Source of the DNA: Gammaproteobacteria bacterium
GTDB lineage: Bacteria > Pseudomonadota > Gammaproteobacteria > Ga0077536
NCBI GenBank assembly: GCA_024235015.1
Contig: JACKNG010000001.1
Span: 77,934-141,933 of the forward strand
Length of the DNA: 64,000 bases
Direction: 5' to 3'
Under the pieces are notes generated by a model. That model did not search any database and had not been told where the DNA came from. It saw only the letters and a list, made by a program, of their open reading frames with translations. A program made the position numbers and the translations under genes. Shown in pieces: positions 3,454-30,541 of this stretch. The first letter of the stretch is position 1. Every line of letters starts with the position of its first letter.

Positions 3454-3493
3454 GGCACGGTCGGGCCGGGCGCGCTGCGGGCTGCGGCGGCGC

Positions 3494-4351
3494 TCAGCGC
3501 GCGCCGACGCGGACCAGGCCCTCCTGGGCCACGGACACCACCAGCCGTCCGGCGGCATCGTAGAAGCTGCCGCGCGCCAGCCCGCGCGCACCGGCCGAAC
3601 TCACGCCTTCGCAGACGTAGAGCAACCAGTCGTCCATGCGGAAAGGCCGGTGGAACCACATCGCATGGTCGAGGCTGGCGAGGAAGATGTTCTCGTCGGT
3701 GGGGCGCACGCCCTGCGGCATGAGCAGGGTCGTGATCAGGCCGTAGTCCGACAGGTAGGCGAGGATGGCGCGGTGCAGATCGGTGTCGTCGGGCAGGCGG
3801 TCGACGGTGCGCAGCCACACGCGGCGCAGCGGCGGCGTGCCCGGCGCGGTGTCACCGAAATAGGCATCGATGGGCCGGAACTCGAACGGCGCGGCGATGC
3901 TTGCGATGCGCTGGACCTTGGGCGAGGCACCCTCGAGGTTGAGCTGGTCGAAGGTCACGCGGGCAAGTTCGCCGGGCGGCGGCACCGCGGGCATGGCGCC
4001 CTGGTACTCGATGCCGTCCTCGCTTTTGTGGAAAGACGCTTCGAGGGTGAAGATCGGCCGGCCGTTCTGTACCGCGGTGACACGACGGGCAGAGAAGCTG
4101 CCGCCGTCGCGACTGCGATCGACCTCGTAGATCACGGGCCTGGCCGACAGCGCCTCGCGCAGGAAGTAGGCATGGATGGAATGCACCGCGCGCGCCTCGA
4201 CGGTCGACTGCGCGGCCTTGATCGCCTCGCCCAGCACCTTGCCGCCGTAGACCCGTGGCAGGTGGGTGTCGCTGATGGCGCCGCGGAACAGGTTGTCCTC
4301 GAGACGTTCGAGTTCGAGGGCGTTAACCAGGCGTTCGAGGGCGGCGTCCAC
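3494..4351 (-). CDS. tesB: Acyl-CoA thioesterase II
   Basis: Strong end-to-end similarity to E. coli TesB (LFRG..., SFSARRV.A.QNG.PIF, HSMWFHRP, RGEFY..G.LVASTVQEG). There is no in-frame ATG at the right length; a GTG at 4351 gives 285 aa matching TesB length and sits 8 bp after the panB stop. The track's 350-aa version has an implausible Ser/Thr/Arg-rich extension. Confidence 0.8.
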   Translation of the reverse strand: MDAALERLVNALELERLEDNLFRGAISDTHLPRVYGGKVLGEAIKAAQSTVEARAVHSIHAYFLREALSARPVIYEVDRSRDGGSFSARRVTAVQNGRPIFTLEASFHKSEDGIEYQGAMPAVPPPGELARVTFDQLNLEGASPKVQRIASIAAPFEFRPIDAYFGDTAPGTPPLRRVWLRTVDRLPDDTDLHRAILAYLSDYGLITTLLMPQGVRPTDENIFLASLDHAMWFHRPFRMDDWLLYVCEGVSSAGARGLARGSFYDAAGRLVVSVAQEGLVRVGAR

Positions 4352-4358
4352 GGCGTTC

Positions 4359-5177
4359 TCAGCGGAAGGCGTATTCGTCGCTTGGGAAGGTGCCGCCGCG
4401 GACCTCGTTGACGTAGGTCTCGAGCGCGCCGTGGATCGAGCCTTCCTGCTCCATGTAGTTCTTCGAGAAGCGGGTGCGCTTGCCGGGGAAGATGTCGAGC
4501 ACGTCGTAGAGGACGAGGATCTGGCCGTCGACGTGGGGGCCGGCACCGATACCGATGACCGGCACCCCGGCGGCAGCGGTGATGTCGGCGGCGAGGTCGA
4601 TGGGCACGCATTCCAGCAGCAGCACGTCGGCGCCGGCCTCTTCCAGCGCGCGGGCGTCGTCCTTCATCTTCTGCGCCGCCTTTGCTTCGCGGCCCTGTAC
4701 GCGGTAGCCGCCGAACTTGTGGATGGCCTGCGGGGTGAGGCCGAGGTGGGCGCACACCGGCACGCCGCACTCGGTGAGGCGCGCGACCATGTCGATTTCG
4801 AGCTCACCCCATTCGAGTTTGACGATCTCCGCCCCGCCCTCCTTCATCAGGCGCGCGGCGTTGCGCAGGCAGTCGGCCGGCGACGAGTAGCTCATGAACG
4901 GCATGTCGGCCATGATCATCGCGCGCCGCGTGCCGCGCGCGACCATCTGGGTGTGGTACACGATGTGGTCGACGGTGACCGGGATGGTGGTGGCCTGACC
5001 CTGCACCACCATGCCGAGCGAATCGCCGACCAGGATGAAGTCGATGCCGACGCGGTCGAGGGCATGGGCGAAGGCGGCGTCGTAGGCCGTCATGCTCGCG
5101 ATCTTCTCGCCGCGCTCCTTCATCAGGCGCAGGGTACGCACCGTGACCTTGTCCGCCATGTCCTGCTGTGCGCTCAT
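4359..5177 (-). CDS. panB: 3-methyl-2-oxobutanoate hydroxymethyltransferase (ketopantoate hydroxymethyltransferase)
   Basis: 272 aa, collinear with E. coli PanB: TAYD..FA, LVGDSLGM..QG...PVT, AHLGLTPQ, GGY.VQGR, VLECVP, IPVIGIGAG...DGQILV. Confidence 0.9.
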   Translation of the reverse strand: MSAQQDMADKVTVRTLRLMKERGEKIASMTAYDAAFAHALDRVGIDFILVGDSLGMVVQGQATTIPVTVDHIVYHTQMVARGTRRAMIMADMPFMSYSSPADCLRNAARLMKEGGAEIVKLEWGELEIDMVARLTECGVPVCAHLGLTPQAIHKFGGYRVQGREAKAAQKMKDDARALEEAGADVLLLECVPIDLAADITAAAGVPVIGIGAGPHVDGQILVLYDVLDIFPGKRTRFSKNYMEQEGSIHGALETYVNEVRGGTFPSDEYAFR

Positions 5178-5201
5178 AAGGTGCCTCCTCCGGCGCGCCG
5201 C

Positions 5202-5612
5202 TCAGCGCGCTGCGCGTCTGCGTTCGATGCCCTGCACGAAGCGGGCGAGATCGACCGGCGCACGCTCGTGCCAGCCGTCGCCGATGGTTTCATGCTCGTC
5301 GTGGGCCTCGCAAGCGAAGCGCACGTGGCGCGCGCCGACCTCGACCACGCGGGCAGTGGCGGTGACCCGCTCGCCGACCGGGGTGGCGGCAAGGTGGCGG
5401 ACGTCGACCCGCGTGCCGACCGAGACCCAGCCCGCCGGCAGCAGCGCGGCGATGGCATCGGCCGCGGCCATTTCCATCAGCAGGATCATCTGTGGCGTGG
5501 CGTAGACCGCCGGCAGGCCGGCATAGGCATGTTGCACGGTGAGCTCGTGGGTGACCTCGATGCTGCGCGTCGCGCTGGCGCCCAGCGCGACCAGGCTGGC
5601 GAGGTCGATCAT
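5202..5612 (-). CDS. Hotdog-fold acyl-CoA thioesterase (PaaI/FlK-like)
   Basis: 136-aa C-terminal portion of the 5202..6773 ORF starting MIDLASLVALGASATRSIEVTHELTVQHAYAG..., with 4HBT/FlK-like hotdog thioesterase features. The start overlaps the dehalogenase stop (ATGA). Confidence 0.65.
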   Translation of the reverse strand: MIDLASLVALGASATRSIEVTHELTVQHAYAGLPAVYATPQMILLMEMAAADAIAALLPAGWVSVGTRVDVRHLAATPVGERVTATARVVEVGARHVRFACEAHDEHETIGDGWHERAPVDLARFVQGIERRRAAR

Positions 5613-6490
5613 GCGCCGCTGAATGCAGCAATCCAGTCGCGCAGGGCGGCGACGATCTCGGCCGGCGAATCCTCCTGGATGAAATGCAGGCCCTTGACCG
5701 TCACCTCGGTCGTGTTGGGCCAGGCGCGCGCGACCTCGGCCGGGGGGCCGTTCATGATCATGCCGGGGTCCGCACTGATGAACAGCTTGGGGATGGACGA
5801 CTGCGCCAGGTAGTCGGCGTAGTTCTCGACCACGTCGACGACGTCGGCCGGTTCGCCACCGAGCGGGATCTGGCGCGGCCAGGTCAGGGTCGGGCGACGG
5901 CCCTCGCCGGGTTCCAGGAAGGGCGCCCGGTAGGCCGCCATCTCCTCGTCGCTCAGCGTGCGCAGGATCGACGCCGGCAGCACGCGTTCGACGAACACGT
6001 TCTTCTCCAGCACCACGGTCTCGCCAGCCGGCGAGCGGAAAGTCTGGAACATCTCGCGCGCCGAGTCGGGCCACTCGTCCCAGCTCAGCGGCTTGACGAT
6101 GCCTTCCATGTGGGCGACGGCCGCAGCGGCTCCCGGGTGGGTCGCGATCCAGTCGAAGCCGAGCGCGCTGCCCCAGTCGTGGATGACGAAGACGACATCG
6201 CGTTCGACACCGAGTGCAGCCAGCGCACCCTGCCAGTAGCGCCGTTGCTCGGCGAAGGTGTAGCGCTCGGGACCGGAGTCCGGCAGCTTGTCCGAGTCGC
6301 CCATGCCGATGAGGTCGATGGCGATGCAGCGGCCGAGGTCGGCGAGCTGCGGCAGGATGTTGCGCCACAGGTAAGAGGAGGTCGGGTTGCCGTGCTGGAA
6401 CACGATCGGACGTCCCTGCCCCATCTCGACGTAGGCCATGCGGCGGCCTTCGACCTCGACGTATTGCTTCTTGTTCGACCAGTCGTTCAT
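5609..6490 (-). CDS. Haloalkane dehalogenase (DhaA-type alpha/beta hydrolase)
   Basis: 293 aa, collinear with Rhodococcus DhaA: HGNPTSSYLWRNI, IHDWGSALGF (nucleophile Asp), PFL.P, GEPA..V, GLHFIQED (His). Confidence 0.85.
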   Translation of the reverse strand: MNDWSNKKQYVEVEGRRMAYVEMGQGRPIVFQHGNPTSSYLWRNILPQLADLGRCIAIDLIGMGDSDKLPDSGPERYTFAEQRRYWQGALAALGVERDVVFVIHDWGSALGFDWIATHPGAAAAVAHMEGIVKPLSWDEWPDSAREMFQTFRSPAGETVVLEKNVFVERVLPASILRTLSDEEMAAYRAPFLEPGEGRRPTLTWPRQIPLGGEPADVVDVVENYADYLAQSSIPKLFISADPGMIMNGPPAEVARAWPNTTEVTVKGLHFIQEDSPAEIVAALRDWIAAFSGA

Positions 6491-6514
6491 GGGCGGTCTC
6501 CTCGCGGATGGGGC

Positions 6515-7405
6515 TCAGCGCGCGGCGCCGAGCTTGTCGAGTTGCGCAGCCAGGGCGACGATGCGTTCCGCCTGCACCAGGTGCGGGCGGTCGATCATCT
6601 TGCCGTCGAGCTGCAGGGTACCGGCATCGGGATTGCTGGCGAAGGCTTCGATCACGGCGCGTGCGTGGGCGAGCTCCTCGGCCGAGGGCGAGAACGCGGC
6701 GTTGATGACCTCGACCTGGGCCGGGTGGATGGCGATCTTGCCGGTGAAGCCATCGCGCCGTGCCTCGTCGCACACCACCTTAAGACGATCGGTGTCGCGG
6801 AAATCGGCCATCACGGTGTCGATGGCCTGCACGCCGGCGGCGTGGGCGCCGAACAGGCACAGCGAGCGCACCAGCTGGTAGGGGCTGGTCCATTCCTTGT
6901 CCGGGCGCAGGTTGGTGCTGGCACCGACCGCGGCGCCGAGATCCTCCGCGCCCCAGGTCATGCCGGCCAGGCGCGGGGTGTCGAAACGGTAGTCGCCGAG
7001 GGTGAACACCGCGGCGGCGGTCTCGGTCGCCACCGGCAGCAGGGCGATGGCCCCGGCCGGCAGGGCGTGTTCGGCCTCGAGCACGTCGATGTAGTGCGAG
7101 ACCGTGCGGAGATCTTCCGGGCCGTTGGCCTTGGGCACGACGATGCCATCGGGTGCGGCCGGCACCACGGCGGCGATGTCGTGCAGGGTGAGGCCCGAGT
7201 CGAGCGGGTTGACGCGCACGTAGAAGCGGACACCGGCTGCGCGCTCGCCGCGCAGGAAGTCAGCGACCATGCCGCGCGCGGTCGGCTTGCGCGTCGCGGC
7301 GACCGAATCCTCGAGGTCGAGGATCACGCAGTCGGCGCCGATCCCCGACGCCTTGGTCATCTTCTTGTCGCTGTCGCCCGGGGCGAAGAGGAGTGAGCGC
7401 AACAT
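6515..7405 (-). CDS. CitE-like acyl-CoA lyase (HpcH/HpaI aldolase family; citryl-/citramalyl-/malyl-CoA lyase beta-subunit type)
   Basis: Real start [19 protein letters not shown]... is at the ATG at 7405 (296 aa); the 105-aa upstream extension in the track is Arg-rich junk. CitE family hallmarks are present. It overlaps the upstream MaoC stop by 1 nt (ATGA). Confidence 0.8.
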   Translation of the reverse strand: MLRSLLFAPGDSDKKMTKASGIGADCVILDLEDSVAATRKPTARGMVADFLRGERAAGVRFYVRVNPLDSGLTLHDIAAVVPAAPDGIVVPKANGPEDLRTVSHYIDVLEAEHALPAGAIALLPVATETAAAVFTLGDYRFDTPRLAGMTWGAEDLGAAVGASTNLRPDKEWTSPYQLVRSLCLFGAHAAGVQAIDTVMADFRDTDRLKVVCDEARRDGFTGKIAIHPAQVEVINAAFSPSAEELAHARAVIEAFASNPDAGTLQLDGKMIDRPHLVQAERIVALAAQLDKLGAAR

Positions 7406-7860
7406 CAGGTCGGCTTCCTCAGCATCAGTCCCGAGCGCTTGCACACGGCGACCAGCTCGTCCTTCTGGTTGTAGGCGCGGTGCTCGAAGATGACGATGCC
7501 GTTCTGCGGCCGCGACTTGCTCTCGCGCAGCTCCATCACCTCCGACTCGACGCGGATGGTGTCGCCGTGGAACAACGGGCGCGGAAAGCGCACCTCGTCC
7601 CAGCCGAGGTTGGCGACGGTGGTGCCGAGGGTGGTCTCGTGCACGCTGATGCCGACCATCAGCGCCAGGGTGAAGCCCGAGTTGACGATACGCTGGCCGA
7701 ACTCGGTCTCGTTCCTGCAATACTCCTCGTCGAGGTGCAGCCGCGCCGGGTTGTGCGTCATCGCCGTGAACAGGACGTTGTCGGTCTCGGTCAGGGTGCG
7801 GCGGATCGGGTGATGGAAAATCTGCCCGACGCTGAATTCTTCGAAGTAAAGGCCTGCCAT
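7405..7860 (-). CDS. MaoC-like (R)-specific enoyl-CoA hydratase/dehydratase
   Basis: 151 aa from [15 protein letters not shown]..., a single hotdog MaoC dehydratase domain, with a GGAGG RBS upstream of the ATG at 7860. Confidence 0.8.
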
Positions 7861-7911
7861 GTTTCCTCCCGTGTGCGCTGCTGGCCGTGAAAGCGAGGCG
7901 GCATTATAGGG

Positions 7912-7964
7912 AAATCGGGGACAGACCACGGTTTCCGCCGGAAACCGTGGTCTGTCCCCGATTT
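7912..7964. repeat. Perfect ~26-bp-arm palindrome AAATCGGGGACAGACCACGGTTTCCG-c-CGGAAACCGTGGTCTGTCCCCGATTT (REP-like, GGGGACAG-headed)
   Basis: Read directly from the sequence in the 147-bp gap between the acyl-CoA synthetase stop and the MaoC start; a near-perfect hairpin with a 1-nt centre. Coordinates ±2. Confidence 0.7.
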
Positions 7965-8007
7965 TTCCTTCGATGCGAACCTGGTGCCGGTTCGCGGCCC
8001 GCGGTCG

Positions 8008-9522
8008 TCAAGCGCCGAACAACGTCGCGTAGCGCTCGCGCAACAGGTTCTTCTGTACCTTGCCCATGGTGTTGCGCGGCAGTTCGTCGAGCACCAGCAC
8101 GCGCTTGGGCACCTTGAACGTGGCCAGCTGGCCGCGCAGGCAGGCAATCACGGCCTGCTCGTCGACCGTCGTCGTGGTCACGACCGCCGCGACCACGGCT
8201 TCGCCGAAATCGGCATGCGGGACGCCGAACACGGCCGCTTCGCCGATGCCGTCGAGGGCTTCGAGTTCGCGTTCGATCTCCTTCGGATAGACGTTGAGCC
8301 CGCCCGAGATGACCATGTCCTTGCTGCGCCCGACGATGAACAGGTAGCCGTCGGCATCGAGGTAGCCCTGGTCGCCGGTGTCGAACCAACCGCCGGCGTC
8401 GAAGGCCTTGGCAGTCGCCTCGGGCAGCCGCCAGTAGCCGGGGAAGACGTTCGGCCCGCGGACCTCGATGTCGCCGATGTCGCCACTCGCGCAGACCTGC
8501 CGTTGAGCGTCGACCACGCGCACTTCCACCCCCGCCAGCGGCGGGCCGACCGAGGCCGGCTTGCGCTCCCCGAGCAGCGGGTTGGAGGTGTTGATGCCGG
8601 TCTCGGTCATGCCGTAACGCTCGAGGATGACGTGCCCGGTGCGTTCGACGAATTCGTGGAAGGTGGCCTCGGACAATGGCGCCGAGCCGGAGATGAACAG
8701 GCGCATGGAAGCGCAGTCGGCGGCACCGAAGCCGGGCAGCGCGAGCAGCCGGGTGTAATAGGTCGGCACCCCGGCCATCAGGGTGGCGCCGGCCAGCGTG
8801 TCTCGCACGGCCGCGGCGTCGAAACGCGGCAGGAAGCGCAGGGTCAGGCCGGCCAGCAGGGCCGGCCCGAGGGTGATGAACAGGCCGTGAACGTGGAACA
8901 CCGGCAGGGCGTGGACGAGCACGTCGTCAGCGTGGAAGCCCCAGGCTTCGCGCAGCGCGCAGGCATTGGCGTAGAGGTTGCCGTGGGTGATGCGGATGCC
9001 CTTGGGCGTGCCGGTGGTGCCCGAGGAATAGAGCAGCGCGGCATCGTCGTCGGCGGCGCGGCTGACGGTGGCGAAGGCCTCGGCGGCAGCGCTGCAGGCG
9101 GCGGCGAAGCCGCCCGCCCCGGCCGCGTCCATGTCGAGCCGCTGCGCGCTGCTGCCGGCCGCGTCGCAGGCGGCCGCCACCCGCGCGGCCAGGGCCGGGT
9201 CGCAGATCACCAGGCGCGAGCCGGCATCGCCGATGAAGAAGGCCAGTTCACGCTCGGTGTAGCCGGTATTGAGCGGATGGAAGACCAGCCCTGCACGCAG
9301 GCAGCCGAGGTAGAGCCAGAGGTAGCGCGGCGACTTCTCGGCGACGACCGACACGCGGTCCCCGGGGGCGAGGCCGAGGGCGCCGAGGGCATTGGCCGCG
9401 CGCGCCGTCTCGCGTTCGGCATCGGCGTAGCTGACCCGGCTGCCGTCCGGCAGTTCGAGCAGGGTGCGGGCGGGGTCGAAGGCGGCGGTGAAGCGCGCGT
9501 AGAGATTGGCGTTGGTCGTCAT
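8008..9522 (-). CDS. AMP-dependent acyl-CoA synthetase/ligase (MatB/long-chain-fatty-acid-CoA ligase-like)
   Basis: 504 aa with the AMP-binding motif YSSGTTGTPKG, TGD, and a C-terminal GKVQK lysine motif. Confidence 0.85.
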   Translation of the reverse strand: MTTNANLYARFTAAFDPARTLLELPDGSRVSYADAERETARAANALGALGLAPGDRVSVVAEKSPRYLWLYLGCLRAGLVFHPLNTGYTERELAFFIGDAGSRLVICDPALAARVAAACDAAGSSAQRLDMDAAGAGGFAAACSAAAEAFATVSRAADDDAALLYSSGTTGTPKGIRITHGNLYANACALREAWGFHADDVLVHALPVFHVHGLFITLGPALLAGLTLRFLPRFDAAAVRDTLAGATLMAGVPTYYTRLLALPGFGAADCASMRLFISGSAPLSEATFHEFVERTGHVILERYGMTETGINTSNPLLGERKPASVGPPLAGVEVRVVDAQRQVCASGDIGDIEVRGPNVFPGYWRLPEATAKAFDAGGWFDTGDQGYLDADGYLFIVGRSKDMVISGGLNVYPKEIERELEALDGIGEAAVFGVPHADFGEAVVAAVVTTTTVDEQAVIACLRGQLATFKVPKRVLVLDELPRNTMGKVQKNLLRERYATLFGA

Positions 9523-9571
9523 GGCCTGATTGAGCGCCCCGGCCGCCAGGCGACCGGGGCCGTGGGGCGGT

Positions 9572-10717
9572 TTACAGGGAACGCGAGATCAGCTCTTTCA
9601 TGATCTCGTTCGAGCCGCCGTAGATCATCTGCACGCGGCTGTCGGCGAAGTAATGCGCCACGGGGTATTCCATCATGTAGCCGTAACCGCCGTGCAACTG
9701 CAGGCATTCGTGGGCGGCTTCGAACTGCTTCTGGGTGCACCACCACTTGGCCATCGAGGCCGTCTCGGTATCGAGTTCGCCGACCTGGAGCTGGCTGATG
9801 CAGTGATCGACGAACACCCGCGCGATACGCGCCTCGGTGGCCAGTTCGGCCAAGGTGAACTTGGTGTTCTGGAAATCGAGCAGGCGCTGGCCGAAGGCCT
9901 TGCGCTCCTTCGTGTAGCCGACCGTCTCGGCGATCACGGCCTCCATCGCGGCGACGGCCATGACGGCGATGATGAGCCGTTCGCGCGGCAACTGCGCCAT
10001 GAGCTGGAAGAAGCCCTGGCCCTCGACGCCACCCAGCACGTTCTCCACCGGGATGCGGCAGTCGTCGAAGAACAGCTCACAGGTGTCCTGGCCCTTCATG
10101 CCGATCTTCTTCAGCGGCTTGTTGCGGCGGAAACCCTCCAGGCCCTCGACTTCGCACATCAGCAGCGAAATGCCCTTGGCGCGCTCCTCGGGGTTGGTCT
10201 TGCACACCACGCACACGAGGTTGGCATTCCAGCCGTTGGTGATGAAGGTCTTCGAACCGTTCAGCACGTAGGTGTCGCCGTCGCGCACGGCGCGTGTCTT
10301 CACCGCCTGCAGGTCGGAGCCGGTGCCGGGCTCGGTCATGGCGATGGAAGTGATGATCTCGCCCGTCGCCATGCCCGGCAGCCAGCGCTGCTTCTGTTCC
10401 TCGGTGCCGTAGCGCACCAGGTAGTGGGCGACGATGCTCTGGATGCCGTTGCCGAAACTCGTGATGCAGGCGCGCGCGCATTCCTCGTAGGTGATGGCGT
10501 CGAAACCGAAATCACCGCCGCCGCCGCCGTACTCGGTCGGCACGTCGGGGCACAGGATGCCGACCTCGCCGGCCTTGCGCCAGGCCTCGGGTTCGGGGTG
10601 GCCCTGTTCGATCCAGCGCTCGCGCTGCGGGACGAACTCGCTGTCGAAGAACTTGCGCACGGCGTCGCGGAAGATCTCGTGGTCTTCCGTCATCCAGGCA
10701 GAACGGTGCGGATTCAT
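9572..10717 (-). CDS. Acyl-CoA dehydrogenase
   Basis: 381 aa with ACAD N/M/C domains (TEPGTGSD, GSKTFITNG, YGGSNEI...). An alternative start is the ATG at 10693. Confidence 0.9.
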   Translation of the reverse strand: MNPHRSAWMTEDHEIFRDAVRKFFDSEFVPQRERWIEQGHPEPEAWRKAGEVGILCPDVPTEYGGGGGDFGFDAITYEECARACITSFGNGIQSIVAHYLVRYGTEEQKQRWLPGMATGEIITSIAMTEPGTGSDLQAVKTRAVRDGDTYVLNGSKTFITNGWNANLVCVVCKTNPEERAKGISLLMCEVEGLEGFRRNKPLKKIGMKGQDTCELFFDDCRIPVENVLGGVEGQGFFQLMAQLPRERLIIAVMAVAAMEAVIAETVGYTKERKAFGQRLLDFQNTKFTLAELATEARIARVFVDHCISQLQVGELDTETASMAKWWCTQKQFEAAHECLQLHGGYGYMMEYPVAHYFADSRVQMIYGGSNEIMKELISRSL

Positions 10718-10771
10718 GGCTCGGTTGCGGTCTCGTGGTGGTGGTCGGTGAGGACGGGCGCCAGGGTCGGA

Positions 10772-11971
10772 TCAGGAATGCAGGCCCAGCACCGACACGC
10801 TGGCGACGTTGCGGAAGGGGTGGCCGCCGAGATTGTGGGTCAGGCCCAGCGACGGGCTCGCCAGCTGGCGTTCGCCGGCGCGGCCGAGCAGCTGCAGGTA
10901 CATCTCGTAGGCCATGCGCAGGCCGCTGGCGCCGATCGGGTGGCCGAAGCACTTGAGCCCGCCGTCGATCTGGCACGGCACCGCGCCGTCGCGGTCGAAC
11001 TCGCCGTCGAGCACGGCCTTGATCGCGCCGCCGGGCTCGCACAGGCCGAGATCTTCCATCACCACCAGCTCGGTGACCGAGAAGCAGTCGTGGACCTCGG
11101 TCATGTCGAGTTCCTTGCGCGGGTCCTTGATGCCGGCCTCCTTGTAGGCGCGCTCGGCGGCGATGCGCGTGGTCAACAGGTAGCTGCCGTCCCAGGCGTT
11201 GTTCGACATCTCGAGGCCGTTGGACGGCGCGAGCTGCATGGCCTTGACGGTGACGAAGTCCTTGTAGCCCATCTCGCGCGCTTTCTCGACGCTGGTGACG
11301 ATGGCGCAGGCCGCGCCGTCGCTCACGCCGCAGCAGTCGTAGAGGCCGAGCGGTGCGGCGATCATGGGCGCGTTGATGGCCTGGTCCTCGGTGATGGTGC
11401 GGCGCAGGTGGGCCTTCGGATTGAGCGCACCGTTGGCGTGGCTCTTGACCGAGATGTGGGCCATGGCGCGCTTGAGATCCTTCGGGTCGCACTTGTGGCG
11501 CGCCTGGTAGGCGCTGGCGAGCTGGGCGAAGGCGCCGGGAGCGGTCGCGTTGGGCAGCCAGAGATCGTCGAACGAGCCCTTGGTGCGTTCCGGCAGGCCG
11601 GCATAGCCGGTGTCCTTGAGCTTCTCCACGCCGAGCGCGAGGGCCACGTCGCAGGCGCCGGCGGCGACCGCGTAGACCGCGCCGCGCAGCGCCTCGGTGC
11701 CGGTCGCGCACATGTTCTCGACCCGCGTCACCGGGATGTTCGGCAGGCGCAACGCCATCGACAGCGGCAGGGCCGACTTGCCGGCACTCTGTTCCTGGAA
11801 GAACAGGCCCAGCCAGGCCATCTCGATGGCCGAGCGCTCGATGCCGGCATCGCCCAGGGCCTCGGTGAAGGCCTCGACGATGAGTTCCTCCGGGCCGCAG
11901 TCCCAGCGTTCGCCGAACTGCGTGCAACCCATGCCGATGATGGCAACCTTGTCTTTGATTCCTGTGGCCAT
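10772..11971 (-). CDS. SCP-x/nonspecific-lipid-transfer-type thiolase (thiolase-like, DUF35-partner type)
   Basis: 399 aa with the thiolase fold (VENMCATGTEALR..., CFGHPIGASG...), typical of the thiolase subunits that pair with DUF35 proteins. Confidence 0.8.
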   Translation of the reverse strand: MATGIKDKVAIIGMGCTQFGERWDCGPEELIVEAFTEALGDAGIERSAIEMAWLGLFFQEQSAGKSALPLSMALRLPNIPVTRVENMCATGTEALRGAVYAVAAGACDVALALGVEKLKDTGYAGLPERTKGSFDDLWLPNATAPGAFAQLASAYQARHKCDPKDLKRAMAHISVKSHANGALNPKAHLRRTITEDQAINAPMIAAPLGLYDCCGVSDGAACAIVTSVEKAREMGYKDFVTVKAMQLAPSNGLEMSNNAWDGSYLLTTRIAAERAYKEAGIKDPRKELDMTEVHDCFSVTELVVMEDLGLCEPGGAIKAVLDGEFDRDGAVPCQIDGGLKCFGHPIGASGLRMAYEMYLQLLGRAGERQLASPSLGLTHNLGGHPFRNVASVSVLGLHS

Positions 11972-12138
11972 GGTCTGCCTCCTTAGCAGGCTGCTGAAAA
12001 ACTACTGCGGCGATCGTGGGCGGCGTTGCGCGCTCGCCTGCGGTCCTCATTCATCAACATAAACGCCGGTCCTCGTCTCGCGCGCGCCTTGCCCACGGCT
12101 TTCCTCGCGACGTTTTTCACCGGCCTGTGCGAGTTTCG

Positions 12139-13581
12139 TCAATCGCCGTCGACCGGGAGCGGCGCCGGTTTCCAGAAGTAACGGCGGAAGTGCCGCTTGG
12201 TGTCGTAGTCCTTGACCCGGAACACCAGGCGCACGGGGTCGCCGACCTTGATCTGTCCGGCGCCGAAATCGGTGAACTCGAGCATCACGTTGGCGCCGTC
12301 GGGGAACTCGACGTTGCCGTAGATGTAGGGCGGCGACGGCGTGTAGGCGAGCCAGTCCTCGGTGAAGGACTTCACCCGCCCGGTCAGGGCGGCGAGGCTC
12401 TCGGGGGTCTGCGATTCCGCCGCGCCGCATTTCACGCACACCAGCGCGCGCGGGAACTGCAGGGTGTTGCACTCGCGGCAGCGCCCGCCGCGCATCGCCG
12501 TGATGTCGCGGCGCTTGCGGTAGTAGGCCGACAGGGCGGTGCGGTTGTCGCGCTCGGAGCGCAACCCGAAGTCGATCGAAATCTGGTTGCGCAGCGAGAG
12601 GAACTGGGTGTAGTTGGCCAGCGGCCGGCGCTGCGCGAGGGCGCGGCCGGCGCCGCGGCCGGCCCGTACCAGAGCCAGCGCCGGAGTCGTGCGCAGGATG
12701 ATGGCATCCGCACCCTGGCCGAAGCCGATGACCAGCACGTACTGGTCGGGGCCCGCGTTGTCGAGCACGCTGGCCAGCATGAGCAGCGGATGGGGGACGC
12801 CGGTGTCGCCGCAGTTGGCCGTGAGCGGGTCGGCGAAGCGCTTGGGGTCGATGCCGAGGGGCTTGGCCAGCGCGCGGGCGACGCCGGTCGAGCCGTGCAG
12901 GACGACGTGGTCGATGTCGCCGACCTGGATGCCGGCGCCGGCAGCGGCCTGCTCGACGACGTCGGGCACGATCTTGAGGTAGCCCTCCTCGCGCACCCAG
13001 CGCTCTTCCAGCGCGTAGTCGAAATCGGTGTCGGTCGCCCGGTACTGGTCGACCATGTCCTCGTGCACGGAGGCCGCGGCGAGGAACTCCGCCACCGGCT
13101 TGCCTTCGCCGATGAGCAGCGCCGCGGCGCCGTGACCGTAGAGCATCTCCTGGCTGCTGCCGGGGCGGGTCTCGCGGGTGTCGGCAGCGACCAGCAGGGT
13201 GGTGTCGTGGCCATGGCCGCGGGCGGCGCGGGCCAGCGCGCTGGTGGCCGCGCGGCGGCTGCCGGCGAGATCCTCGGTCAGCACCTCGTGGTCGAGGTCG
13301 AGGGCATCGGCGACGACGCCGCTGTTGGAGCGATCGGCGAAGGGCAAGGTGGTCGAAGCCAGGCTGACCTGGCCGACCGGGCCGTCGACCCCGGCCAGGC
13401 AGTCACGCGCGGCCTCGACGGCCAGCGTGATGCTGTCCTCGTCCCAGTTGGCGACGGCGCGCTCGCCCGCGGCCAGGCCGCGCACGCCGGGGACGGCCCA
13501 GCCGACGGCGTCGAGGATCGCGCTGCGCGCGAGTCGCAGGTGGGGAACGTAGGCGCCGAAAGATAGGATGCCGTAAGTCAT
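12139..13581 (-). CDS. HMG-CoA synthase-like (thiolase-superfamily) protein fused to a C-terminal DUF35 Zn-ribbon/OB-fold domain
   Basis: 480 aa. The N-terminal ~340 aa resemble archaeal-type HMG-CoA synthase (GILSFGAYVPHLRL..., CGDTG). The C-terminal portion carries CRECNTLQFPRALVCVKCG (Zn ribbon) followed by an OB-fold-like region (GRVKSFTEDW...GDPVRLVFR). Confidence 0.7.
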   Translation of the reverse strand: MTYGILSFGAYVPHLRLARSAILDAVGWAVPGVRGLAAGERAVANWDEDSITLAVEAARDCLAGVDGPVGQVSLASTTLPFADRSNSGVVADALDLDHEVLTEDLAGSRRAATSALARAARGHGHDTTLLVAADTRETRPGSSQEMLYGHGAAALLIGEGKPVAEFLAAASVHEDMVDQYRATDTDFDYALEERWVREEGYLKIVPDVVEQAAAGAGIQVGDIDHVVLHGSTGVARALAKPLGIDPKRFADPLTANCGDTGVPHPLLMLASVLDNAGPDQYVLVIGFGQGADAIILRTTPALALVRAGRGAGRALAQRRPLANYTQFLSLRNQISIDFGLRSERDNRTALSAYYRKRRDITAMRGGRCRECNTLQFPRALVCVKCGAAESQTPESLAALTGRVKSFTEDWLAYTPSPPYIYGNVEFPDGANVMLEFTDFGAGQIKVGDPVRLVFRVKDYDTKRHFRRYFWKPAPLPVDGD

Positions 13582-13663
13582 CAGACCTCTTCTCGTGTGA
13601 AATGGTGTGCCGCAGGCAGCACGGCGATTCTAAGGGAATTGGCCGGCGACCGTCGCCGCCGGC

Positions 13664-14851
13664 TCATACCGCGCCGGCTGCGCGCAGGGCAGCGACTGCC
13701 GCGGCGTCGTAGCCGAGTTCGGCGAGGATGGCGTCGGTGTGCTCTCCCACCGTGGGCGCGCGCCGATGCGGCGGCGCATGGCCGGACATGGCGACCGGGA
13801 AGCGTGCCACGGGGGGCGCGGTGCCCGCGATGTCGGGATATTCGAGCGGGCGCAGGAAGCCCATCGCGGCGGCCTGCGGGTGGGTGACGGCCTGGTCGAG
13901 ATCGAGCACCGGTCCGGCCGGCACGCCGGCCGCGGCGAGGGCGTCGAGAACTTCCTCGGTGGTGCGGCTGCGGCACCAGTCGGCGACGTGGCCGCAGATC
14001 TCGTCGCGGTGGTCGCCGCGCAGGCCGTCGCTGGCGAACGCCGGGCGGTCGGCCCAGTCGACGTCCCCGATGAGACCGGCGAGGCGCCTGAACAGGCCGT
14101 TGCCGACCACGTGGGTCAGCACGTGGCCGTCGCGTGTCTCGAAGATGTCGGTCGGCGCGCTGGTCTGGCCGCGGTTGCCGCTCGGTACGCGGTTGACCGC
14201 GAGCACGGCCTGCTCGATGAGCGCGGCGTTGAAGAAGGTCAGCGAGGTGCCGAGCAGCGAGGCCTGCACGTGCTGGCCCCGGCCCGTGTCGCGCTTCTGG
14301 TAGAGCGCGGCGAGCGTAGCGAAGGCGCCGAGCGCGGCGGTGCCGAAATCGGCGAACGGGGTCGCGCTCTTGGCCGGCTGGCCGGGCTGCCCGGACATGA
14401 AGGCCGAGCCGGACATGGCCTGGCCGATGCCGTCGAAACCGCCGCGGTCACGCCACGGGCCTTCGTGGCCGAAACCGGTCTGGGTGGTGAGGATGATGTC
14501 GGGCTTGATGGCGGTGAGCGTGGCGTAGTCGAGGCCGGCGCGGACCAGCGCCTTGGGCGGCATGTTGGCGATGACGACGTCGGCCCGCTCGATCAGGCGG
14601 CGCTTGATGTCCGCCGCCTCGGCATGCTTGACGTCGAGCGTCATGCCGCGCTTGTTGCAGCCGGTTTCGAGGTAGACCGCGCTCGCCGTGGGACTGACCG
14701 TGCCGACGAAGCGGTCCTCGCTGCCACCCGGCTTCTCGATGCGGATGACGTCGGCGCCGAGGTAGGCGAGCAGCGCGGCGCAGTAGGGGCCGGCGATGTA
14801 GCGCGAGAAATCGAGCACGCGTACGCCGGCCAGGATGGCGTTGTCGGACAT
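13664..14851 (-). CDS. CoA transferase family III (CaiB/BaiF-type)
   Basis: Real start MSDNAILAGVRVLDFSRYIAGPYCAALLAYLGADVIRIEKPGG at the ATG at 14851 with a GGAGG RBS; 395 aa. The 20-aa extension in the track is not supported. Confidence 0.85.
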   Translation of the reverse strand: MSDNAILAGVRVLDFSRYIAGPYCAALLAYLGADVIRIEKPGGSEDRFVGTVSPTASAVYLETGCNKRGMTLDVKHAEAADIKRRLIERADVVIANMPPKALVRAGLDYATLTAIKPDIILTTQTGFGHEGPWRDRGGFDGIGQAMSGSAFMSGQPGQPAKSATPFADFGTAALGAFATLAALYQKRDTGRGQHVQASLLGTSLTFFNAALIEQAVLAVNRVPSGNRGQTSAPTDIFETRDGHVLTHVVGNGLFRRLAGLIGDVDWADRPAFASDGLRGDHRDEICGHVADWCRSRTTEEVLDALAAAGVPAGPVLDLDQAVTHPQAAAMGFLRPLEYPDIAGTAPPVARFPVAMSGHAPPHRRAPTVGEHTDAILAELGYDAAAVAALRAAGAV

Positions 14852-15034
14852 GGTTCCCCTCCTCCCCGTTGACAGGCTCGCCGCGCTGTCCGTCAGCGGC
14901 GGCCGCGGCATTGTCGCAATTCCGCCCGTTCTTGACGATGCAGTGGCGGAGCCTGGCCCGGGAGCACCGGCGGGCGTGTGCTAGGGTCGGGGTCCGACTC
15001 ACCGCGCCGAGCGCATCGGCGAGGAACAGCAGTG

Positions 15035-15553
15035 ATGATGAAATTCACCCACGGCGAACGTGCGACCGCCGCGGTGGCCGCACGCCGCCTGTGCCTGGGG
15101 GCCGTGGTGGGCCTGCTGCCGGCGGCCGGCCCGGTCGACGCGGCCTCGGTCTTCCGCTACGTCGACGACGCCGGCGTCACCGAGTACGCCGCCGACCCCC
15201 CGGCCGATGGACGCGACTACCAAGTGGTCGAGGTCGATGCCGAGTTACCCGACGCGGCCGTGCTCGCGGCCCAGCGGCGCCGCGATGCCCTGTTGTCAGG
15301 GGCCGCGACGGTCGAGGACGAGCTGGCGGCGGACAAGCGCGAGCGCGCACAGGCCGTGCAGGCCGCGCGGGCCGAGCTCGCCGCCGCGCGCAAGAAGCTG
15401 CGCGAGGCGCAGGCGGTGAAGGATGGCGACTGGCAGAACCTGGCCAACGGCCGGCGGCATCTCCAGCCGGCCTACTTCGACCGCGTCGCGGCCGCGCGGG
15501 CGGCCGAACGCGCCGCGCGCGACGCGCTGGCCGTAGCCCGCCGGGCGCACTGA
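15035..15553 (+). CDS. DUF4124 domain-containing secreted protein
   Basis: Start MMKFTHGERATAAVAARRLCLGAVVGLLPAAG (signal peptide) with a GAGGAA RBS 9 nt upstream. The VFRYVDDAGVTEYAADPP motif is characteristic of DUF4124; the C-terminal region is Ala/Arg-rich coiled-coil-like. Confidence 0.6.
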   Translation: MMKFTHGERATAAVAARRLCLGAVVGLLPAAGPVDAASVFRYVDDAGVTEYAADPPADGRDYQVVEVDAELPDAAVLAAQRRRDALLSGAATVEDELAADKRERAQAVQAARAELAAARKKLREAQAVKDGDWQNLANGRRHLQPAYFDRVAAARAAERAARDALAVARRAH

Positions 15554-15569
15554 GGCGGGCGGCGCCCGG

Positions 15570-16115
15570 CTACAGCCCCGCGGGGCGCTTCTGCAGCTTG
15601 CGTTGCAGGGTGCGTCGATGCAGGCCGAGCTTGCGCGCGGCGTCGGAGACGTTGCCCTTGCAGGCGATCAGGGTCTTCTGGATGTGTTCCCACTCGAGGT
15701 GTTGCAACGAGGTCGGCTCGCTCGGTACGGCCGCCTGCGGGTCGGGCCCGGGCGCGCCGAAGGCGGCGATGATCTCGTCGGCGTCGGCCGGCTTGGTGAG
15801 GTACTGCACGGCGCCGAGCTTGATGGCATGGACGGCGGTGGCGATGCTCGCGAAGCCGGTCAGCACGACGATGCGCAGCGCCGGGTCGATGGCGCGCAGG
15901 GGCTCGATCAGTTGCAGGCCCGAATCCTGTTCCAGGCGCAGGTCGAGGACGACGTAGGCCGGCGGCGTGGCGCGGGCCGCGACGAGGGCGGACGTCCCAT
16001 CGGCGGCGGTCGTAACCGCGTAGCCGCGCCGCGTCAGCGCCGCGGCCAGCACCTCGCGGAAGGCCTGGTCGTCGTCGATGATCAGGCAGCGCGGCGCGCT
16101 GGCGGTGGCCGTCAT
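15570..16115 (-). CDS. regA: Fis-type response regulator of the RegA/PrrA/ActR/RoxR family
   Basis: 181 aa from MTATASAPRCLIIDDDQAFREVL..., with a receiver domain (D at LVLDLRL) plus a C-terminal Fis-type HTH (GNVSDAARKLGLHRRTLQRKLQK). The ATG at 16115 overlaps the kinase stop (ATGA). The long upstream extension in the track is a wrong-frame continuation. Confidence 0.85.
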   Translation of the reverse strand: MTATASAPRCLIIDDDQAFREVLAAALTRRGYAVTTAADGTSALVAARATPPAYVVLDLRLEQDSGLQLIEPLRAIDPALRIVVLTGFASIATAVHAIKLGAVQYLTKPADADEIIAAFGAPGPDPQAAVPSEPTSLQHLEWEHIQKTLIACKGNVSDAARKLGLHRRTLQRKLQKRPAGL

Positions 16116-17365
16116 GTCGGCGACAGGGGCGCGATGGGGATGGCGATGCGGGCCAGGGTGCCGTGCGGCGGCCGCGCTTCGAGGGCCAGGCTGCCGCCGA
16201 GGCGCTCGACGATGGTGCGCGCCAGCAGCAGGCCGATGCCGAGACCGTCCTGCTTGGTGCTGACGGCCTCGCGGCCGAGGCGCGCGCCGAGCGCGGCGTC
16301 GATCCCCGGGCCGTCGTCGCCGACCGTGAGTGACAGCTCGGCGGCCGACCAGCGGCTCTCGATGTCGACCCGCGAGGCGGCCGCCTGGGCGGCATTGTCG
16401 AGCACGTTGACGATGGCCTGGGTGAGCACGCGGTCGACGACGATGCCGGGTGGTGGCGTGCTGCCGCGGTGCACATAGGCGACTTCGACTTCGGGGTGGC
16501 GGGCGCGCCAGTCGCGCACCACGCCGGCGACGAAGTCGTCGACGGCGACCGCCTCCCCGGCACTCGCCGGGCCGGCGCCGGCGACGTCGGCCATGCGCGC
16601 GAGAATTGCCTTGCAGCGCGCAATCTGCGCACGCAGGGTGGCGGCCTGAGCGCGCAGTTCGGCGCTGTCGGCGCCGTGCTCGATCTCGCCGGCGAGCACG
16701 GCCATGGTCGACAACGGCGTACCGAGTTCGTGCGCCGTGCCGGCGGCGAGGGTGCCGAGGGCGAGGAATCGCTCGCTCGCCAGCGCCTCTTCGCGCAGGG
16801 TCGCGAGTTCGTGATCGCGGCGGCGCAGGTGGCCGGCGAGCGCGGCGACGAACAGCGCCACCGAGACCGCGCTGAGCATGAAGCCGTACCACATGCCCCA
16901 CACGTGCAGGCTGAACGAGCCGGCCTGGTGATGGCCCTCGAGCGGCGGCGCCGGCACCAGCATGAGGCCCGTGTAGCAGGCCACGGCGATCACCGCCACC
17001 GCGGCCGTGGCGGGCCGTGGCAGGGCCGCCGCGGCGAACACGATCGGCAGCAGGAACAGCGAGATGAAGGGGTTGAAGGCACCGCCGGTGAAATAGACCA
17101 GGGCCGAGAGCGCGGCGAGATCCGCCAACAGCTGGGCGAGGTAGCCGCGCGCCGGGTGCACGCCCATGCCGGGTGTGCCCACCCACCAGGAGAACGCGGT
17201 GAACAGCGCCAGCACGACCAGCACGAGGTTGATCGCGGGCCATGGCAGGTGCGCGGCGAAGACCCCGTCCATGACCAGCAGGGCGAGGTATTGGCCGCCG
17301 ATCACGACCAGGCGGATCAGCAGCAGGTAGCGCAGGATGTGGTCGATGGGGGTGCGGTTGGGCAT
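16112..17365 (-). CDS. regB: Redox-sensing sensor histidine kinase of the RegB/PrrB/ActS/RoxS family
   Basis: 417 aa from MPNRTPIDHILRY... (alternative ATG at 17404). Multi-TM N-terminus with the quinone-binding heptad GGAFNPF (GGXXNPF), H-box TAHELGTPLS, conserved redox-box cysteine in QIARCKAILARM, and an HATPase domain. Confidence 0.85.
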   Translation of the reverse strand: MPNRTPIDHILRYLLLIRLVVIGGQYLALLVMDGVFAAHLPWPAINLVLVVLALFTAFSWWVGTPGMGVHPARGYLAQLLADLAALSALVYFTGGAFNPFISLFLLPIVFAAAALPRPATAAVAVIAVACYTGLMLVPAPPLEGHHQAGSFSLHVWGMWYGFMLSAVSVALFVAALAGHLRRRDHELATLREEALASERFLALGTLAAGTAHELGTPLSTMAVLAGEIEHGADSAELRAQAATLRAQIARCKAILARMADVAGAGPASAGEAVAVDDFVAGVVRDWRARHPEVEVAYVHRGSTPPPGIVVDRVLTQAIVNVLDNAAQAAASRVDIESRWSAAELSLTVGDDGPGIDAALGARLGREAVSTKQDGLGIGLLLARTIVERLGGSLALEARPPHGTLARIAIPIAPLSPT

Positions 17366-19111: not shown

Positions 19112-19141
19112 GCGTTGTTTCTCCCCTGAGTTTGACGCTGT

Positions 19142-20182: not shown

Positions 20183-20439
20183 CGTCGCTCCTGGTGTGGT
20201 GAGCCGTGCGTTGGAGGTCGGGAGGATAGTCGAGCCGCGCCGGCTTGGCGACACGTCGGCGCGTCGCCCGTCGATCACGCGCCGTGCACACCATCGCCCT
20301 GGCCGCGCCGCACGCGGGCAATCTGCCCGGCACCGAGCGGGTGCCGCGCCCTGTCGGTGGCGCGGTCGCGCTCGCTAGCGTGTGGTCCCTGCTGTGCCAC
20401 GCATTCGTGGCCAGCGCTCTTATCCGGGAGACACGCCGC

Positions 20440-21696: not shown

Positions 21697-21752
21697 CGCT
21701 GGGCGCCCTCCGGCCGGGGGCGGTCCAGCCCCGGCCGGTGCGGCGTTCCGCC

Positions 21753-22775: not shown

Positions 22776-22902
22776 CGTCGGTTCTCCGCGGACTGTGGGC
22801 GACGGGCGGATGGCGGCAGGCTGGTCGCGCCGCCACGCTCTGCGCGGCACGTTAGCCGCGCAACGCCGGGCGCACAAGGCAGCGGCCTGCCGGCCGGCGG
22901 GA

Positions 22903-29758: not shown

Positions 29759-29761
29759 GCG

Positions 29762-30334: not shown

Positions 30335-30384
30335 GTACGCGGCGCGGTCGGGACGCCGGCCTAACAAACCGGGACGGAGCTAAG

Positions 30385-30450: not shown

Positions 30451-30541
30451 ATTCCCGCTACCCGTCCCCGCCCGACGCACAGACGACGACGCGCTGCCGC
30501 ACCTGCGGTGGCGAGCAGAATTTCTTCGAGGGGAGACATCC

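Follow-up and report, generated by a model that had tools for sequence, protein, structure and literature searches.

The 64,000-nucleotide stretch of DNA from an uncultured gammaproteobacterium analysed here (contig JACKNG010000001.1, positions 77,934 to 141,933; hereafter the window) carries a continuous run of minus-strand genes from 5202 to 14911. In the direction of transcription they encode a family-III CoA transferase, a protein in which a 3-hydroxy-3-methylglutaryl-CoA synthase (HMGS)-like domain is fused to a DUF35 domain, a thiolase, an acyl-CoA dehydrogenase (ACAD), an acid-CoA ligase, a MaoC-type hydratase, a CitE-like lyase, a haloalkane dehalogenase and a FlK-like thioesterase. 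The fusion protein and the thiolase encoded beside it are the subject of this report. The window is ~69% G+C and mechanical lists of its open reading frames (ORFs) are full of spurious frames; genes were chosen by codon-position GC. An earlier note on this DNA had proposed a CoA-thioester cluster consisting of the first seven of these genes (given there as 6515–14851; they extend to 14911), and codon-position GC, Pfam and NCBIfam agree that the cluster is present and that its domains had been assigned correctly. All seven genes have a third-position G+C (GC3) of 0.85–0.93, with GC1 greater than GC2.

The fusion gene (12139–13581, minus strand) is a single, compositionally uniform ORF of 480 aa with a GC3 of 0.92. 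Residues 1–335 (12577–13581) form the HMGS-like domain, which matches the archaeal HMG-CoA synthase model PRK04262 over residues 2–335 (177 bits; cut-off 244) and scores 108 bits against TIGR00748 (cut-off 353). The DUF35 part consists of a rubredoxin-like zinc ribbon at residues 364–388 (12418–12492; zf-ChsH2, PF12172) and an OB-fold at residues 399–455 (12217–12387; OB_ChsH2_C, PF01796; 33 bits, cut-off 27). The best PDB matches of the N-terminal part are PhlA (5m3k_A, 1e-29), a PhlA-type protein (9skh_A, 1.5e-27) and an HMGS (6esq_I, 8e-24), and those of the C-terminal part are PhlB (5m3k_B) and a DUF35 protein (6esq_E, 1e-5). With the AlphaFold2 model of the fusion (pLDDT 73), Foldseek ranks PhlA first, followed by HMGS and MucA. 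Fused proteins of this kind should not be named HMG-CoA synthases or KAS III enzymes in annotation.

The HMGS–DUF35 fusion is genuine: its domain boundaries were checked against profile models and fused homologues are widespread. An identical protein is on record from an 849-kb contig of a gammaproteobacterial metagenome-assembled genome (MAG), and at least 120 full-length homologues share 55–79% identity with it. In a scan of one genome per species, relatives of the fusion were encoded in at least 395 genomes, mostly of uncultured Gammaproteobacteria, with Steroidobacteraceae, Woeseiaceae, Phreatobacter and Niveispirillum also among the carriers. Searching plasmids with tblastn showed that cultured Niveispirillum, Azoarcus sp. 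KH32C, Variovorax, Tistrella, Sphingobium, Novosphingobium and Rhodococcus carry the fused gene at full length on a megaplasmid or chromid. HMMER, run exhaustively against 1.84 billion cluster representatives (50% identity), returned 474 matches at ≤1e-30; we examined the best 150, of which 113 are full-length fusions of 455–520 aa at 30–58% identity. A frameshift or assembly artefact as the origin of the fusion is excluded by the uniform single ORF and by the conservation of the fused architecture across relatives. The earlier note had regarded a fused bacterial version as unusual, a view that does not hold, as the type is common in proteobacteria and has already been described and assayed (Liao et al., Nat Commun 2026; PMC12960953).

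Two features outside the HMGS-like domain are strongly conserved. The zinc-ribbon cysteines C368, C371, C382 and C385 are invariant in close relatives and are kept in ~90% of the 113 diverse fused representatives. The linker between the domains (residues ~320–361; 12499–12622) is among the most conserved motifs in close relatives, with Y324, L328, D337, G339, R341 and the segment E343-R-D-N-R-T-A349 retained. AlphaFold assigns a pLDDT below 50 to linker residues 332–361, and the linker, perhaps an interface element, may become ordered only when the complex forms.

The catalytic tetrad of archaeal HMGS consists of E82, C114, H238 and N270 (PMC12960953). We mapped these residues onto the fusion by HMMER alignment to 6esq_I, with high posterior probability at all four positions, and followed them through a close set of 18 relatives (55–77% identity) and a wide set made up of the 113 fused representatives, the alignment of which was anchored with the 6ESQ HMGS and PhlA sequences. 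E82 is replaced by T77, which is invariant in the close set; across the wide set the position is Thr in 93 proteins and Glu in none. C114 is replaced by R109, also invariant among the 18, and the wide set has mostly Leu or Gln at this position, Arg in nine, other residues in the remainder and Cys in none. H238 aligns with H229, a position that varies among close relatives (His, Pro, Ala, Thr) and is mostly Pro, Tyr or Ala in the wide set, and N270 aligns with D259, which is nearly invariant in the close set and is Asp or Asn among the 113. The motif G107-S108-R109-R110 that occupies the former Cys site is invariant in the 18 close relatives; S108 is kept in 93 and R110 in 100 of the diverse representatives. 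Further residues of the HMGS-like domain that are invariant in the close set are D83-R84-S85-N86, R136, H173, D175 and R181.

With the E-C-H-N tetrad lost, the HMGS-like half of the fusion is predicted to be catalytically dead. An active HMGS is ruled out by this loss together with the absence of Glu and Cys from the corresponding positions in all 113 relatives. We also considered a one-residue register shift that would place Ser108 at Cys114 and rejected it: the HMMER and MAFFT alignments are both ungapped here, K115 pairs with R110 and T118 with T113, and Ser108 corresponds to archaeal Ala113. Serine would in any case be a poor nucleophile in the thiolase fold. The reversed, aldol-type role that had been suggested for the HMGS-like domain is not supported, as a check for its Cys/His/Glu triad, the one that the earlier note had itself named as refuting, found the triad absent. 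A retro-Claisen role, suggested alongside it, is still plausible for the adjacent thiolase, although not for the HMGS-like domain.

The thiolase gene (10772–11971, minus strand; 399 aa) encodes a protein of the SCP2/archaeal-ACAT type that scores 672 bits against NF004810 (PRK06157; cut-off 403). Its best PDB matches are the archaeal acetyl-CoA acetyltransferases (ACATs) 7yvy_A (3e-57) and 6esq_A (8e-56), followed by SCP2-type thiolases and BbsB (3e-44). The motifs N-M-C88-A-T-G, H294-D-C-F and G-H-P align to the catalytic motifs of 6esq_A and 7yvy_A, and on this alignment the enzyme appears catalytically complete. His294 of the HDCF motif has the same residue number as H294 of the Pseudomonas fluorescens homologue PfACAT, in which an H294Y mutation nearly abolished activity (PMC12960953). 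An AGGAGG ribosome-binding site precedes the thiolase ATG, and the gene is separated from that of the fusion by 167 nt, compared with 15–71 nt in twelve relatives, among them a 93%-identical one (locus L003) with 15 nt. Of 82 related loci found with tblastn, 78 have the thiolase gene as the next gene after that of the fusion, and three of the four exceptions are contig ends. Across these loci the thiolase is 64–98% identical to its counterpart in the window, more than the fusion at 47–93%.

The thiolase motifs bear on two other reactions that could be proposed for the pair. An Ltp2/Sal-type retro-aldolase would act directly on the 3-hydroxyacyl-CoA product of MaoC, which would explain the absence of a hydroxyacyl-CoA dehydrogenase from the cluster. 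In keeping with this idea, there is a MaoC hydratase gene and no short-chain dehydrogenase/reductase (SDR) or 3-hydroxyacyl-CoA dehydrogenase gene in the cluster, and DUF35 partners are typical of Ltp2/Sal aldolases. Sal, however, uses Tyr302/Cys304 and Ltp2 uses paired Tyr residues, with Tyr replacing the His of HDxF in both steroid aldolases, whereas the window protein has His294-Asp-Cys296-Phe, a Cys88 nucleophile and GHP like true thiolases. The match to Ltp2 is also weak (6ok1_A, 7e-18, against 1e-57 for ACATs), and the CitE-like lyase already offers a means of cleaving 3-hydroxyacyl-CoA. We consider a retro-aldolase very unlikely.

The second proposal is a Friedel–Crafts C-acyltransferase of the PhlABC/MucABC type that would serve a secondary metabolite, and it draws on the ranking of PhlA as the best solved relative of the N-terminal part and first in Foldseek, and on the match of PhlB to the C-terminal part. 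The thiolase, however, keeps the HDxF motif that is lost in PhlC and MucB, and matches PhlC weakly (2e-17) over its C-terminal 120 residues only. The neighbouring genes encode an ACAD, a ligase and a hydratase, and Pfam scans of ORFs across the window detected no polyketide synthase (PKS), nonribosomal peptide synthetase (NRPS) or type III PKS genes. Activity of the Friedel–Crafts type is extremely improbable. The same scans detected no mevalonate genes in the window.

We compared the genomic context of related pairs by searching with the proteins of the window (tblastn) and clustering the ORFs around each pair, which divided the 82 loci into group A (43 loci) and group B (39 loci). Group A, in which the fusion is at least 59% identical, consists entirely of gammaproteobacterial MAGs. 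Downstream of the fusion and thiolase, these loci carry an ACAD gene (31 of 43) and a MatB-like ligase gene (30 of 43) and then, after a spacer, genes for MaoC (25), CitE (24), the dehalogenase (25), the FlK-like thioesterase (17) and panB (24). In group B, which has lower fusion identity and includes Niveispirillum, genes for alpha subunits of Rieske oxygenases flank the pair on its two sides (22 and 20 loci), an SDR gene directly follows the thiolase gene in 19 loci, and CMD-family proteins (10), glutathione S-transferases (GSTs; 18) and a TonB-dependent receptor (16) are encoded nearby. Homologues of the CoA transferase (53–92% identical) occur close to the pair in 20 group-A loci, where they are upstream, and in 17 group-B loci, where they are 53–59% identical to the window protein. 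Loci L083 and L084 (8784–15560) and L087 (4568–12502) illustrate the arrangement between two Rieske alpha-subunit genes, with SDR, CMD-family protein, GST, TonB-dependent receptor, CoA transferase and CoA ligase genes as neighbours. Cultured betaproteobacteria have the pair within full gene sets of the beta-oxidation type. In Variovorax paradoxus VAI-C such a set encodes SDR, MaoC, fusion, thiolase, ACAD, CoA transferase and a binding protein of the Bug type, and in Azoarcus sp. KH32C hydratases, MaoC, SDR, electron transfer flavoprotein and a second thiolase surround the pair.

The constant element across these loci is the fusion plus the thiolase, often with a family-III CoA transferase, in surroundings of catabolic acyl-CoA chemistry, and the degradative setting that the earlier note gave to the cluster is borne out. 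The fused pair is conserved in at least three designs of degradation cluster: with ACAD and MatB-like ligase; with SDR, MaoC, ACAD and CoA transferase; and with Rieske oxygenase, SDR and GST. A separate observation is that five group-A loci and one group-B locus encode an IcmF-type fused acyl-CoA mutase (B12-binding, MeaB and MM_CoA_mutase domains) ~9 kb beyond the pair on its downstream side (for example, L036 19404–21422; L084 19027–21455), which hints at branched-chain acyl-CoA metabolism.

We consider it probable, at roughly 60%, that this is a catabolic acyl-CoA locus in which the thiolase operates with a non-catalytic HMGS-like/DUF35 scaffold. By analogy with 6ESQ, PhlABC, MucABC, BbsAB and Shy–Sal, the fusion would bind the thiolase through its DUF35 part. 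As a pseudo-enzyme it would, like its counterparts in the archaeal, PhlABC and PfACAT/HMGS-DUF35 complexes, supply solubility or stability and part of a shared CoA/substrate chamber, and hence substrate selectivity. The SCP2/ACAT-type subunit alone would be catalytic, carrying out thiolytic (retro-Claisen) cleavage of a 3-oxoacyl-CoA by means of Cys88, HDCF and GHP. Complex formation, the direction of the reaction, the scaffold role and anything about the substrate we infer by homology.

Several points weigh against a degradative thiolase with a pseudo-enzyme scaffold. The cluster in the window has no gene for a 3-hydroxyacyl-CoA dehydrogenase, whereas the group-B and Variovorax loci do carry an SDR gene, and the 3-oxoacyl-CoA must therefore come from elsewhere. 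As a speculative source, acetoacetate might be released by an HMG-CoA-lyase-like action of the CitE-like protein and re-activated by the CoA transferase. Complex formation and activity of the window pair are extrapolated from the P. fluorescens homologue, and the AlphaFold2 model of the fusion is of moderate confidence only. The synteny in group A comes from one lineage of related MAGs, and the adjacency of the genes may partly reflect shared ancestry. Finally, the strong purifying selection apparent on the HMGS-like domain seems to exceed the needs of a bare scaffold, and the domain may have a binding function or a new catalytic role.

One formulation of this last point is that the HMGS-like domain has been neofunctionalised, with a Ser/Arg-rich site (GSRR, DRSN, R136, H173 and R181) that binds a carboxylate or other polar group or supports new catalysis; in that case the complex, much like BbsAB, would be a thiolase dedicated to 3-oxoacyl-CoAs that are carboxylated or bulky. 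Consistent with this are the strong conservation of the charged residues (and of S108 and R110, in 93/113 and 100/113), the dicarboxylate-linked neighbours (MatB, the SUGCT-like transferase and the Bug-type proteins of Variovorax) and the precedent of BbsAB, in which a thiolase associated with DUF35 releases succinyl-CoA. Across the wider family, however, the Cys position is occupied by variable residues, with Arg in only 9/113; the conserved residues are known at the level of sequence; and PfACAT/HMGS-DUF35 takes plain acetoacetyl-CoA (PMC12960953). Neofunctionalisation therefore strikes us as unlikely. We would be similarly hesitant to propose that the pair serves one or more uncharacterised catabolic pathways as their dedicated thiolase, rather than being an idle intermediate, with the former HMGS site repurposed for the carboxylated or polar acyl group of substituted aliphatic acids. 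If this doubtful proposal were true, the pair would work with the MatB-type ligase, the LCAD-like dehydrogenase and the MaoC–CitE–dehalogenase–FlK-like module, its substrates could be dicarboxylic or possibly omega-halogenated, and the FlK-like enzyme would remove a toxic haloacetyl-CoA end product.

The remaining genes of the cluster can be assigned to families with varying precision. The CoA transferase (13664–14911, minus strand; 415 aa; CaiB/BaiF family, CoA_transf_3, PF02515, 355 bits) is encoded 82 nt upstream of the fusion; an internal ATG at 14851, where the earlier note began the gene, is an alternative start, and the ORF reaches 14911. Its best solved relatives are 4ed9 and human SUGCT (9br7; 1e-48 to 1e-50), and it reaches no NCBIfam equivalog cut-off. 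The ACAD gene (9572–10717, minus strand; 381 aa; Pfam N, M and C domains) follows the thiolase gene after 54 nt, and its product resembles long-chain acyl-CoA dehydrogenases (LCADs), with 2pg0 (377 bits) and human ACADL (8w0t, 364 bits) as best PDB matches. The ligase, encoded a further 49 nt downstream (8008–9522, minus strand; 504 aa), is of the MatB-type malonyl/methylmalonyl-CoA synthetase family (NF005702, PRK07514; 674 bits, cut-off 558). It matches Rhodopseudomonas palustris MatB (4fuq) over its full length (535 bits, residues 4–502) and is a MatB orthologue by this match, its substrate assignment being a prediction. Malonyl-CoA decarboxylase and MatB usually form a mat operon; a malonyl-CoA decarboxylase gene (MCD_N plus MCD; 59098–60354, minus strand) is present in the window, ~50 kb from the MatB-type synthetase gene.

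The MaoC gene (7405–7860, minus strand; 151 aa; PF01575 plus PF19315) encodes a single-domain (R)-specific enoyl-CoA hydratase whose best PDB match is the N-terminal half of beta-methylmalyl-CoA dehydratase (8hgn). The CitE/HpcH-type lyase gene (6515–7405, minus strand; 296 aa; PF03328, 119 bits) starts at ATG 7405 according to its coding signal and Pfam match, where the ORF list had 6515–7720. The best PDB matches of the lyase are CLYBL (5vxc), RipC (3qll) and Mycobacterium tuberculosis CitE (6aq4). Taken together, the family matches (SUGCT, MatB, CLYBL/Ccl and mesaconyl-CoA hydratase) point tentatively towards short dicarboxylic or branched acids; guesses at individual substrates, such as glutarate, HMG, alkylmalonate or omega-halo acids, would be speculation.

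These assignments bear on the proposal that the genes form one pathway for a C5 dicarboxylate (itaconate, mesaconate, methylsuccinate or another), in which CoA transferase, MaoC and CitE would take the Ict/Ich/Ccl roles and the HMGS-like domain would run an aldol or Claisen reaction in reverse, with a branched acyl-CoA as its substrate. The chemistry of the matched families is indeed that of dicarboxylyl-CoAs (SUGCT; mesaconyl- and beta-methylmalyl-CoA hydratases; CLYBL, RipC and M. tuberculosis CitE), and RipB/Ich and RipC/Ccl are among the top NCBIfam matches. An ACAD also accompanies the genes, as Sasikaran et al. are said to have described in 2014 for the itaconate cluster of P. aeruginosa. 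However, MaoC scores 132 bits against the RipB/Ich equivalog NF038241 (cut-off 340) and the lyase 152 bits against the RipC/Ccl equivalog NF038242 (cut-off 375), less than half of the cut-offs in both cases; against citE the lyase scores 161 (cut-off 443). The CoA transferase gene lies at the opposite end of the cluster from MaoC and CitE, with four genes and a 20-bp palindrome between, and it tracks the thiolase pair across genomes, occurring with it in both synteny groups, whereas MaoC–CitE occurs in one lineage and always with the dehalogenase. The HMGS tetrad is absent, the ACAD is LCAD-like rather than methylsuccinyl-CoA dehydrogenase-like, and the ligase is a MatB orthologue by its match. 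What remains of the 'itaconate trio' described in the earlier note is a fair resemblance at the level of families; the three proteins do not form a unit, and a single C5-dicarboxylate pathway is improbable.

The gap between the ligase and MaoC genes (147 nt) contains a perfect 20-bp inverted repeat with a loop of 3–5 nt (7915–7961), followed on the minus strand by a TATAAT sequence, seen by eye, ~40 nt upstream of the MaoC ATG. No second copy of the repeat occurs in the window, and among relatives only L003, which is 93% identical, has conserved it. A sigma-70 promoter scan of 3300–16200 gave no matches. The repeat is likely to be a terminator or operator that parts two transcription units; alternatively, it may be a REP-like element. 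Because the palindrome and TATAAT lie between the ligase and MaoC genes, and the spacer at this point is variable in relatives (58–1815 nt), we favour two transcription units. The evidence argues for a first module of CoA transferase, fusion, thiolase, ACAD and ligase (14911 to 8008) and a separate, translationally coupled second module of MaoC, CitE, dehalogenase and thioesterase (7860 to 5202). In the second module the MaoC stop overlaps the CitE start by 1 nt, CitE and the dehalogenase are 24 nt apart, and the dehalogenase stop overlaps the start of the FlK-like gene. Locus L002 keeps fusion, thiolase, ACAD and ligase without MaoC and CitE. In functional terms, the first module would comprise the CoA transferase, a heteromeric degradative thiolase, the LCAD-like ACAD and the MatB-type acid-CoA ligase, and the second would be a separate hydratase/lyase branch.

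The dehalogenase and FlK-like thioesterase genes, co-oriented and tightly spaced with MaoC–CitE, lie outside the 6515–14851 range to which the earlier note had confined the cluster. The dehalogenase (5609–6490, minus strand; 293 aa) is of the HLD-II type and exceeds the cut-off of the NF002938 equivalog (409 bits; cut-off 241). The thioesterase (5202–5612, minus strand; 136 aa) belongs to the FlK family of hotdog proteins (PF22636, 113 bits) and matches FlK itself (3kv7) at 3e-17; in this alignment the Thr/Glu/His triad and Arg120 of FlK are conserved and its gate residue Phe36 is replaced by Leu. The FlK-like gene directly follows the dehalogenase gene in 16 of 27 related loci that bear a dehalogenase. 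A literature search linking FlK-type thioesterases with haloalkane dehalogenases returned no match.

The cluster is flanked downstream by panB and an acyl-CoA thioesterase II gene, and upstream by a divergent DUF4124 gene and a RegB/RegA-like two-component pair. Elsewhere in the window, an acetone-carboxylase-like set (Hydantoinase_B, Acetone_carb_G and Hydantoinase_A) followed by an FAA-hydrolase-family gene occupies 27500–33599 on the plus strand. The expected product of such a set is a beta-keto acid such as acetoacetate, and we considered a link through acetoacetate; the acetone-carboxylase-like genes (27.5–32.7 kb) are 13 kb from the cluster, with sulfate-assimilation genes between. A Hydantoinase_B gene is also found at the edge of the related locus L001. 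Three further stretches (18239–23348, 47378–52487 and 56378–58874) contain four luciferase-like monooxygenase genes, a metallo-beta-lactamase-fold gene, a P450 gene and an aldoxime dehydratase gene beside an amidase gene; several group-A loci share the monooxygenase and metallo-beta-lactamase-fold genes that lie upstream of the cluster, in syntenic positions. Two DUF3047 genes are located at 20230–21696 and 36777–38339. At 60400–64000 the G+C content drops from ~0.70 to 0.53–0.61, and this stretch was probably acquired as an island; it carries an IS200/RAYT-like Y1 transposase gene (60996–61697), a gene for a DUF2938 protein and three ORFs that match no Pfam family. Scans for tRNA genes and Rfam families across the whole window gave no matches.

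Comparison with characterised systems places the pair more precisely. Its kinship with the archaeal thiolase/HMGS/DUF35 complex (6ESQ), recognised in the earlier note, is upheld: the same three structural units are present and the catalytic motifs of the thiolase are identical (thiolase 1e-56 to 6esq_A). In the archaeal complex, however, the units are three separate proteins rather than two, and the HMGS is active and anabolic, in the mevalonate pathway, whereas the window fusion has lost the tetrad and lies in a catabolic setting. PhlABC (PpATase, 5M3K/5MG5) resembles the window pair in another respect, as PhlA, the best solved relative of the N-terminal domain, is likewise without the tetrad (its residues are C/G/Q/D), PhlB is the counterpart of the DUF35 part, and in both PhlABC and MucABC (9VBO) the thiolase-type subunit is the sole catalytic subunit, as proposed for the window pair. 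Unlike the window fusion, the Phl proteins are unfused and encoded beside PKS or NRPS genes, and PhlC and MucB, which acylate small aromatic or tetramic acceptors, have lost the motif that reads HDCF in the window thiolase.

Among degradative systems, the benzoylsuccinyl-CoA thiolase BbsAB (7PXP) and IpfDE of ibuprofen degradation likewise combine a DUF35 protein and an SCP2-type thiolase within a cluster for CoA transferase, ACAD and hydratase. The group-B relatives, with their Rieske oxygenase, GST and CoA-ligase neighbours, resemble the ipf genes, whose thiolase/DUF35 pair IpfDE acts alongside a CoA ligase, a GST and a Rieske dioxygenase and removes an acyl-CoA side chain. The window fusion differs in having an HMGS-like domain, none being reported for BbsA or IpfE, and the window proteins score 143 bits against the BbsB equivalog (cut-off 750) and 26 against BbsA (cut-off 250). 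The translational coupling of MaoC to a CitE-like lyase, with a family-III CoA transferase and an ACAD close by, recalls Ict/Ich/Ccl (RipABC) and M. tuberculosis Rv2498c/Rv2499c. Unlike Ict/Ich/Ccl, MaoC–CitE is coupled in the window to a haloalkane dehalogenase and a FlK-like thioesterase, and the CoA transferase is in the other module.

The closest counterpart is PfACAT/HMGS-DUF35 of P. fluorescens. Liao et al. identified 1,030 bacterial loci in which genes for HMGS, ACAT and DUF35 occur together, 1,001 of which have no secondary-metabolism neighbours, and chose the P. fluorescens complex as their representative (PMC12960953). Its HMGS-DUF35 is a fusion that lacks the tetrad, and its ACAT retains Cys, HDxF and GHx; the complex makes no HMG-CoA, and no acetoacetyl-CoA from acetyl-CoA, and cleaves acetoacetyl-CoA thiolytically (PMC12960953). 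The window locus shares the single HMGS-like/DUF35 polypeptide with its tetrad lost, the adjacent ACAT-type thiolase that keeps Cys, HDxF and GHx, and the lack of PKS/NRPS neighbours. By all sequence-level features the window pair appears to be of the PfACAT/HMGS-DUF35 type, with orthology judged from architecture and motifs alone. There are two differences: the subfamily in the window has the invariant GSRR at the former Cys site, and the window pair and at least 80 related loci lie within conserved catabolic acyl-CoA clusters. Liao et al. view PfACAT/HMGS-DUF35 as an evolutionary intermediate that has not yet been recruited to a pathway (PMC12960953). Our locus is an ordinary representative of the ACAT/HMGS-DUF35 group, and what it adds, which is modest, is the conserved catabolic context, a point left open in that study. 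These contexts point to a degradative thiolase with a pseudo-enzyme scaffold and give the question of physiological role a direction, and Variovorax paradoxus VAI-C, Azoarcus sp. KH32C and Niveispirillum cyanobacteriorum TH16 are cultured carriers in which that role could be tested.

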